Source of the DNA: a phage | Sequence record: AB218927.1 | DNA length: 853 nt | Strand: one strand, 5' to 3' | Part shown: one piece after another, positions 1-853 of the stretch | How the letters are laid out: every line of letters begins with the position of its first letter | How positions within the stretch are numbered: the stretch's first letter is position 1 | Program-made: the position numbers and the translations under genes | The notes under the pieces: generated by a model | Databases searched by the model: none | What the model was told of the DNA's origin: nothing | Seen by the model: only the letters and a program-made list of their open reading frames with translations

Positions 1-27
1 TTCGAGCTCGGTACCCGGGGGCGCGCC
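1..27. other. Cloning-vector polylinker, 5' flank: SacI GAGCTC 4-9, KpnI GGTACC 10-15, SmaI/XmaI CCCGGG 14-19, AscI GGCGCGCC 20-27
   Basis: Directly read restriction-site string TTCGAGCTCGGTACCCGGGGGCGCGCC, identical to the EcoRI-proximal end of a pUC19/pNEB193-type multiple cloning site as I recall it. The phage-derived sequence begins immediately after the AscI site. Confidence 0.85.
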
Positions 28-28
28 G

Positions 29-79
29 CTTCACTTAGCGAATGCATTAGCCTTAATCAACCAACGCCTGAAAAGGTAA
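29..79 (+). CDS. 3' end of maturation (A) protein gene, 5'-truncated at the cloning junction (C-terminal residues LHLANALALINQRLKR, stop TAA 77-79)
   Basis: Open frame from the insert boundary to TAA at 77-79, ending 16 nt before the coat ATG, which is the expected position for the A-protein terminus in levivirus gene order (mat-coat-lysis-rep). I cannot confirm the C-terminal residues from memory, so this call is positional. Confidence 0.45.
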   Translation, partial: LHLANALALINQRLKR

Positions 80-95: not shown

Positions 96-488
96 ATGGC
101 AACTTTACGCAGTTTCGTACTCGTCGATAATGGCGGTACGGGGAATGTTACTGTCGTTCCTGTTAGCAATGCCAACGGCGTCGCTGAGTGGCTTTCTAAT
201 AACTCGCGCAGTCAAGCTTATCGCGTGACTGCCAGTTATCGTGCGTCAGGCGCGGACAAGCGCAAATACACCATCAAACTCGAAGTACCGAAAATCGTTA
301 CTCAAGTTGTTAATGGTGTCGAGCTGCCTGTTTCCGCATGGAAGGCTTACGCCTCTATTGACCTGACCATCCCTATCTTTGCTGCAACCGATGATGTGAC
401 CGTTATTTCCAAGTCACTCGCCGGCCTGTTCAAAGTTGGGAACCCTATCGCTGACGCTATCTCTTCTCAGAGTGGCTTCTACGCGTAA
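96..488 (+). CDS. cp: Coat (capsid) protein of a GA-type group II ssRNA coliphage, complete, 130 aa
   Basis: Translation MATLRSFVLVDNGGTGNVTVVPVSNANGVAEWLSNNSRSQAYRV...TIPIFAATDD...GNPIADAISSQSGFYA matches the phage GA coat protein as I recall it, nearly residue for residue. It also shares the conserved levivirus coat motifs seen in MS2 (FVLVDNGGTG, ANGVAEW, NSRSQAY, ELTIPIF, GNPI). ATG 96, stop TAA 486-488. Confidence 0.95.
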   Translation: MATLRSFVLVDNGGTGNVTVVPVSNANGVAEWLSNNSRSQAYRVTASYRASGADKRKYTIKLEVPKIVTQVVNGVELPVSAWKAYASIDLTIPIFAATDDVTVISKSLAGLFKVGNPIADAISSQSGFYA

Positions 489-679
489 TGGGTCTGAAAG
501 CAAAGCATAAGGAAAACCTATGTTCCGATTCACAGAGATCGAAAAGACTCTATGTATGGATCGCACTCGCGATTGTGCTGTCCGATTTCACGTCTATCTT
601 CAGTCACTGGATTTGGGGTCTTCTGATCCTCATTCTCCGGACTTTGATGGACTTGCCTACCTTCGTGATGAATGTTTAA
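488..679 (+). CDS. L: Lysis protein L (single-gene lysis protein), complete, 63 aa; start ATG 488-490 overlaps coat stop TAA 486-488
   Basis: The ORF sits in the position of levivirus L, spanning the coat-replicase junction in a third frame. It has a basic N-terminal region (KAKHK...RSKR) followed by a hydrophobic transmembrane-like segment. RSKRLYVWIALAIVLSDFTSIFS aligns with MS2 L RSSTLYVLIFLAIFLSKFTNQLL, including the conserved Leu-Ser dipeptide (codons at 578-583). Confidence 0.85.
   Translation: MGLKAKHKENLCSDSQRSKRLYVWIALAIVLSDFTSIFSHWIWGLLILILRTLMDLPTFVMNV
504..524 (+). promoter_or_regulatory. Translational operator RNA hairpin (coat-protein binding site) containing the replicase start codon
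   Basis: AGCAUAAGGAAAACCUAUGUU folds as follows: upper stem G511-C518 and G512-C517, 4-nt loop AAAA (513-516), bulged A510, lower stem A509-U519, U508-A520, A507-U521, C506-G522 (plus G505-U523 and A504-U524). This has the same architecture as the MS2 operator ACAUGAGGAUUACCCAUGU, with the replicase AUG (520-522) in the 3' arm of the lower stem and the SD-like AGGA in the 5' arm and loop. Confidence 0.8.
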
Positions 680-810: not shown

Positions 811-853
811 TTAATTAAGTCTAGAGTCGACTGTTTAAACCTGCAGGCATGCA
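811..853. other. Cloning-vector polylinker, 3' flank: PacI TTAATTAA 811-818, XbaI 820-825, SalI 826-831, PmeI GTTTAAAC 833-840, SbfI 840-847 / PstI 841-846, SphI 847-852
   Basis: Directly read string TTAATTAAGTCTAGAGTCGACTGTTTAAACCTGCAGGCATGCA. The order PacI-XbaI-SalI-PmeI-SbfI/PstI-SphI, together with AscI on the other flank, matches the pNEB193 (pUC19-derived) polylinker as I recall it. Confidence 0.85.

Follow-up and report, generated by a model that had tools for sequence, protein, structure and literature searches.

A GA-type lysis gene L in cloned cDNA from a group II F-specific RNA coliphage

The open reading frame (ORF) at positions 488–679 of the DNA analyzed here, a stretch of 853 nucleotides (hereafter, the window), is with a probability of about 0.96 the lysis gene L (sgl) of a GA-type RNA coliphage, expressed by ribosomes that restart at the end of the coat gene and specifying a small membrane protein with a type II lysis action. 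The assignment is made because of the homology of the product, the position of the gene and published experiments on relatives, and not because of the length of the frame. L of GA-type phages has been described before, and the copy in the window shows nothing unusual. It has been annotated since the GA record X03869, its coupling to the coat gene is a textbook model, and the nearly identical protein of phage KU1 has been characterized physiologically. The practical value of the analysis lies in showing the window to be a vector-borne cDNA of a group II coliphage with an intact toxic lysis gene.

The cloned insert and the identity of its L frame

Identity to phage genomes begins at position 28 of the window and ends at position 810, and the flanking nucleotides are the arms of a vector polylinker (Table 1). 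The window is thus a plasmid-borne cDNA fragment rather than a native phage RNA sequence or a natural piece of a genome. The insert was apparently cloned between AscI and PacI. The order of the restriction sites in both arms matches that of the pNEB193 polylinker; if the vector is indeed pNEB193, the insert would lie antisense to the lac promoter, an orientation that would suit a toxic gene. A search of PLSDB plasmids with the 43-nt right arm yielded no match, so that the identity of the vector is read from the restriction sites. Over positions 28–810, the insert is 98.1% identical to BZ13 DL20, 96.8% to GA, 96.8% to BZ13 DL10, 91% to BZ13 T72, and 89% to KU1. Judged by these identities, its source is one of the group II F-specific RNA coliphages in the GA/BZ13/KU1 lineage and, like all five relatives, belongs to Emesvirus japonicum. 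Four coding elements are present in the insert, namely, the end of the maturation gene, the coat gene, L, and the start of the replicase gene. The minus-strand ORFs are short (28–50 aa), and the sequence is that of the plus strand of an RNA phage. Three bases, C281, G505, and C607, distinguish the window from all five related genomes, each of them synonymous in every frame that it touches; within the L gene, the changes unique to the window are thus two silent substitutions, G505 and C607. In the coat protein, T59 (A in GA), V79 (G in GA), and D120 (E in GA) are of the DL20 type at all three positions, as taken from the nucleotide alignment (codons at 270–272, 330–332, and 453–455).

Table 1 Features of the 853-nt window
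Feature	Position	Strand	Remarks
Left polylinker arm	1..27		SacI GAGCTC, KpnI GGTACC, SmaI CCCGGG, AscI GGCGCGCC; non-phage; sites read directly
Maturation (A) gene, last 16 codons and stop	29..79	+	Collinear with DL20 mat CDS 129-1301, match from 1250; TAA 77-79
Coat gene, 130 aa	96..488	+	Stop TAA 486-488; Pfam Levi_coat, E 1.6e-38; capsid/coat in DL20, GA, and KU1 records
Imperfect hairpin, end of coat gene	454..478	+	GA X03869 feature 1683-1707, "potential" lysis control; -8.4 kcal/mol, z -1.9
UAAUG junction, coat stop and L start sharing one base	486..490	+	Putative termination-reinitiation site; conserved in DL20, GA, and DL10
Lysis gene L (sgl)	488..679	+	ATG, 63 codons and TAA; from ORF listing
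L domain 1, basic N-terminal 20 residues	488..547	+	Net charge +4
Replicase operator hairpin (coat-protein binding site)	504..524	+	X03869 feature 1733-1753; ((((((.((....)))))))), -4.9 kcal/mol
Replicase gene, first 97 codons	520..810	+	Pfam RNA_replicase_B, E 9e-24; cut off by cloning site
L domain 2, hydrophobic LYVWIALAIV, residues 21-30	548..577	+	
L domain 3, Leu31-Ser32	578..583	+	Invariant in aligned L proteins
L domain 4, residues 33-63, with second hydrophobic segment IFSHWIWGLLILIL	584..676	+	
Right polylinker arm	811..853		PacI, XbaI, SalI, PmeI, PstI, SphI; sites read directly

The plus-strand ORF and its 63-aa translation, as quoted in the preliminary description, agree exactly with the ORF listing. 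The product shares every residue with the lysis protein of BZ13 DL20 (ACT66727, FJ483839; 100% identity) and is 97% identical to L of DL10, 95% to L of GA, and between 95% (tblastn) and 98% (MAFFT) to L of KU1. Its residues 6–53 match the Pfam family Phage_MS2_lysis (PF11125) with 30.6 bits, above the curated cut-off of 25 (E = 3.3e-7), the protein matches phrog_8450 with an E value of 1.8e-32, and BLASTP aligns it with L of phage MS2 at 43% identity over 51 residues (E = 1e-10). The preliminary description had recognized a levivirus L and had staked this reading on profile or BLASTP searches and on similarity to the L proteins of GA-type phages. The reading is borne out by both kinds of search, by the near-identity to annotated L proteins, that of GA included, and by the position of the gene between the Levi_coat and RNA_replicase_B domains. 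The same description had placed L across the coat-replicase junction, which is accurate on the replicase side, where the two genes overlap by 160 nt (520–679) in different frames, but not on the coat side: L overlaps coat by a single base, with no straddling of the kind seen in MS2, and then crosses a 31-nt spacer before entering the replicase gene. This order of coat, L, and replicase, with L in a frame that differs from those of both neighbors, is the same in DL20, GA, DL10, T72, KU1, MS2, and fr, and the L genes of DL20, GA (CAA27498, X03869), and KU1 (AAF67675, AF227250) have the length, position, and frame of that in the window.

The protein has the four-part layout of L-like lysis proteins, for which the published model comprises a basic domain 1, a hydrophobic domain 2, a Leu-Ser (LS) domain 3, and a variable domain 4 (PMC10229422). 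The charged N-terminal third noted earlier corresponds to residues 1–20, which carry a net charge of +4 plus one histidine. The long hydrophobic stretch was likewise recovered, at residues 21–53 with a net charge of 0; however, it is not one uniform C-terminal domain but two segments separated by a polar patch, with Kyte-Doolittle peaks at approximately residues 23–34 and 41–52 and a dip between them at TSIFSH. The single LS dipeptide of the protein, residues 31–32, had also been singled out from the outset; it closes the first hydrophobic segment on the C-terminal side, where the published model also has it, and is followed by a variable C-terminus. When L of MS2 and fr are included in the alignment, H7, C12, Q16, R17, S18, and the block LYVxIxLAIxLSxFT (L21–T35) are invariant, whereas K6 is common to MS2 L only and is not found in fr L. 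Besides the four-domain layout and this block, L of the window shares with that of MS2 the location at the coat-replicase boundary in another frame and, probably, the coupling to coat. The two proteins differ in that the N-terminal domain of the window L is about 17 residues shorter, although it still keeps KH, C, and QRS, and in that Trp, Ile, and Leu are more frequent in its C-terminal segment.

A single-sequence AlphaFold model renders L as one continuous helix spanning residues 4–62, with a mean pLDDT of 79 and values of 86–93 over residues 21–50. Such a featureless long helix is weakly suggestive of a helical membrane anchor. A search of PDB sequences with L returned a chance match to a transmembrane helix (VEGFR2 TM, E = 0.21) and no solved relative.

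In the GA record X03869, L (1717–1908) is annotated as "put. lysis protein," and the accompanying note says "aa 1-64," yet the CDS consists of 63 codons and a stop. In the RefSeq record NC_001426, all four GA proteins are labeled "hypothetical protein."

Probable coupling to the coat gene and RNA elements around the L start

When the 15 nt upstream of L were read by eye, no GGAGG-like Shine-Dalgarno motif was seen. The lysis gene of GA likewise lacks a Shine-Dalgarno sequence, and its translation falls strictly to ribosomes finishing the coat gene, via UAAUG; once coat translation is removed, reading of the downstream L is abolished (Inokuchi and colleagues, PMC9955659). The junction in the window is identical to that of GA, from which we infer the same coupling. 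Ribosomes that have just finished coat, and these alone, would restart at the AUG of L, which would need no ribosome-binding site of its own, and the restart would link L, made in a small amount, to the bulk synthesis of coat protein. The L genes of MS2 and fr begin inside the coat gene, by 50 and 38 nt, respectively, and coupling proceeds by RNA unfolding or scanning (PMC12548453). A stop-start overlap thus stands in group II phages where MS2 relies on the unfolding of a hairpin, and it reduces the same coupling principle to its simplest form. The junction is split in KU1 (1715–1737) and T72, both of which carry an 18-nt insertion exactly at UAAUG and a 3-nt insertion nearby; these two phages use UUG as the L start, 17 nt downstream of the coat stop, and their L protein has one extra residue.

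Two annotated hairpins flank the start of L (Table 1). In addition, a 101-nt fold was predicted in which positions 442–445 in the coat gene are paired with the four bases that begin at the G of the L start codon (z -1.5), the related genomes being too similar for covariation to be read in it. The replicase operator hairpin, with its bulged A and AAAA loop, encloses the replicase AUG and is contained wholly within the L ORF (codons 6–13), beginning 16 nt after the L start. A coat dimer bound to this operator might therefore hinder ribosomes reading L as well late in infection. One of the bases unique to the window, G505, turns an A-U into a G-U pair at the base of this hairpin. A scan of the whole window against Rfam (E ≤ 1) gave no family, and the operator hairpin has no curated model there.

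Proposed lysis action

By analogy with L of MS2, the basic N-terminal 20 residues would stay in the cytoplasm, and the helical hydrophobic part (residues 21–53) would insert into the inner membrane. The protein would then, as shown for the Sgl of the close relative KU1, trigger local failure of the envelope and autolysis while net peptidoglycan synthesis continues, the mode referred to as type II or L-like. Induction of KU1 Sgl lyses Escherichia coli, with incorporation of 3H-mDAP going on until lysis, and the blebs that it produces are numerous, distributed, and not septal, which places it with MS2 L in type II (bioRxiv 10.1101/2023.10.16.562596). This physiology is carried over to L of the window on the strength of their 95–98% identity. 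Multicopy suppressors of the Sgl proteins of MS2, KU1, Hgal1, and PRR1 include many genes of envelope homeostasis and point to no single target (PMC10229422).

Dependence on DnaJ is a feature shown for MS2 L, which binds this chaperone via its N-terminal domain, apparently in a regulatory manner; other L-like proteins may not need DnaJ (PMC10229422). It is conceivable, if on balance doubtful, that the GA-type L with its 20-residue N-terminal domain lyses cells independently of DnaJ and represents a naturally stripped-down L core consisting of the hydrophobic segment, LS, and the C-terminal helix. Such a core would then offer a cleaner means than MS2 L of tracking down the type II target. The question of that target belongs to the whole family, and the sequence of the window does not advance the answer.

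The alternative that fares best concerns the mechanism and leaves the gene assignment as it is. According to this possibility, which we regard as tentative and rather unlikely, L would oligomerize via its transmembrane helix into large pore-like membrane lesions, without acting on any particular host protein to deregulate wall growth. MS2-L is described as forming high oligomers via its transmembrane domain in nanodiscs and clusters in vivo, and the lesions observed by cryo-EM as beginning in the outer membrane (PMC10688784); the long helical hydrophobic region predicted for L of the window would be compatible with such behavior. However, the suppressors of the MS2, KU1, Hgal1, and PRR1 Sgl proteins include lytic transglycosylases, which points to maintenance of the cell wall rather than to a simple hole, and the strict conservation of LS and its neighbors in the alignment suggests a specific contact.

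Far less probable is a type I action, in which L would block the supply of lipid II at MurA, MraY, or MurJ, as do phiX174 E, phage M Sgl, and PP7 Sgl. These proteins are, like L of the window, small and embedded in other genes, and they are membrane-anchored and sufficient for lysis, as that L probably is too. Furthermore, PP7 Sgl is L-like by its domain layout and yet inhibits MurJ, so that layout alone does not decide the class. Nevertheless, phiX174 E, M Sgl, and PP7 Sgl stop the supply of peptidoglycan precursors (MraY, MurJ), cause septal blebs, and have no similarity to L of the window, whereas KU1 Sgl, 95–98% identical to it, sustains mDAP incorporation until lysis, and its blebs are distributed rather than septal. 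The suppressor profile of KU1 Sgl is also complex, clustering with the MS2, Hgal1, and PRR1 profiles, whereas murJ stands out in the profiles of M and PP7. Thus, for the window L, the type II mode is favored over a precursor block.

Frame length and the overlap with replicase

When the replicase N-terminus is recoded synonymously, the L frame stays open over at least the same length in approximately 19% of cases, and in the DL20 replicase gene (1742–3340), the frame that encodes L is free of stops over two other stretches, of 88 and 79 codons. The length of the L frame alone is within chance and would not justify a gene call. The evidence beyond chance consists of the conservation of the ORF, the Pfam match, and the 43% identity to MS2 L; each of the five distinct genomes of group II that were found keeps the ORF, and these genomes correspond to six database records, two of them holding the same GA sequence. 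Despite this openness of the frame, and despite a small and hydrophobic product such as holins and type I toxins also are, the notion of a chance frame within the replicase gene, or of a holin or type I toxin unrelated to phage L, is barely credible in the face of the near-identity to annotated lysis proteins, the Pfam match, and the use of the GA start codon in vivo (PMC9955659).

A holin and a toxin were also considered as candidates in their own right and rejected. The related complete genomes (3.4–3.5 kb) encode only the maturation, coat, lysis, and replicase proteins, with no endolysin as a partner for a holin. As for the toxin of a type I toxin-antitoxin pair, the locus is that of an RNA phage genome and has no antitoxin locus. 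The searches with PADLOC and Rfam gave no match.

Variation across six aligned sequences (the window and the five phage genomes) was compared at third codon positions. Such positions vary in 51 of the 130 coat codons and in 4 of the 53 replicase codons that overlap L (Fisher p = 1e-5), a low variation that is as expected if the second frame is under selection. Set against the downstream stretch that encodes replicase only, where 7 of 44 third positions vary, the difference from the L overlap is non-significant (p = 0.22). As the overlap is not significantly tighter than the replicase-only stretch, RNA structure may add to the constraint on this part of the genome.
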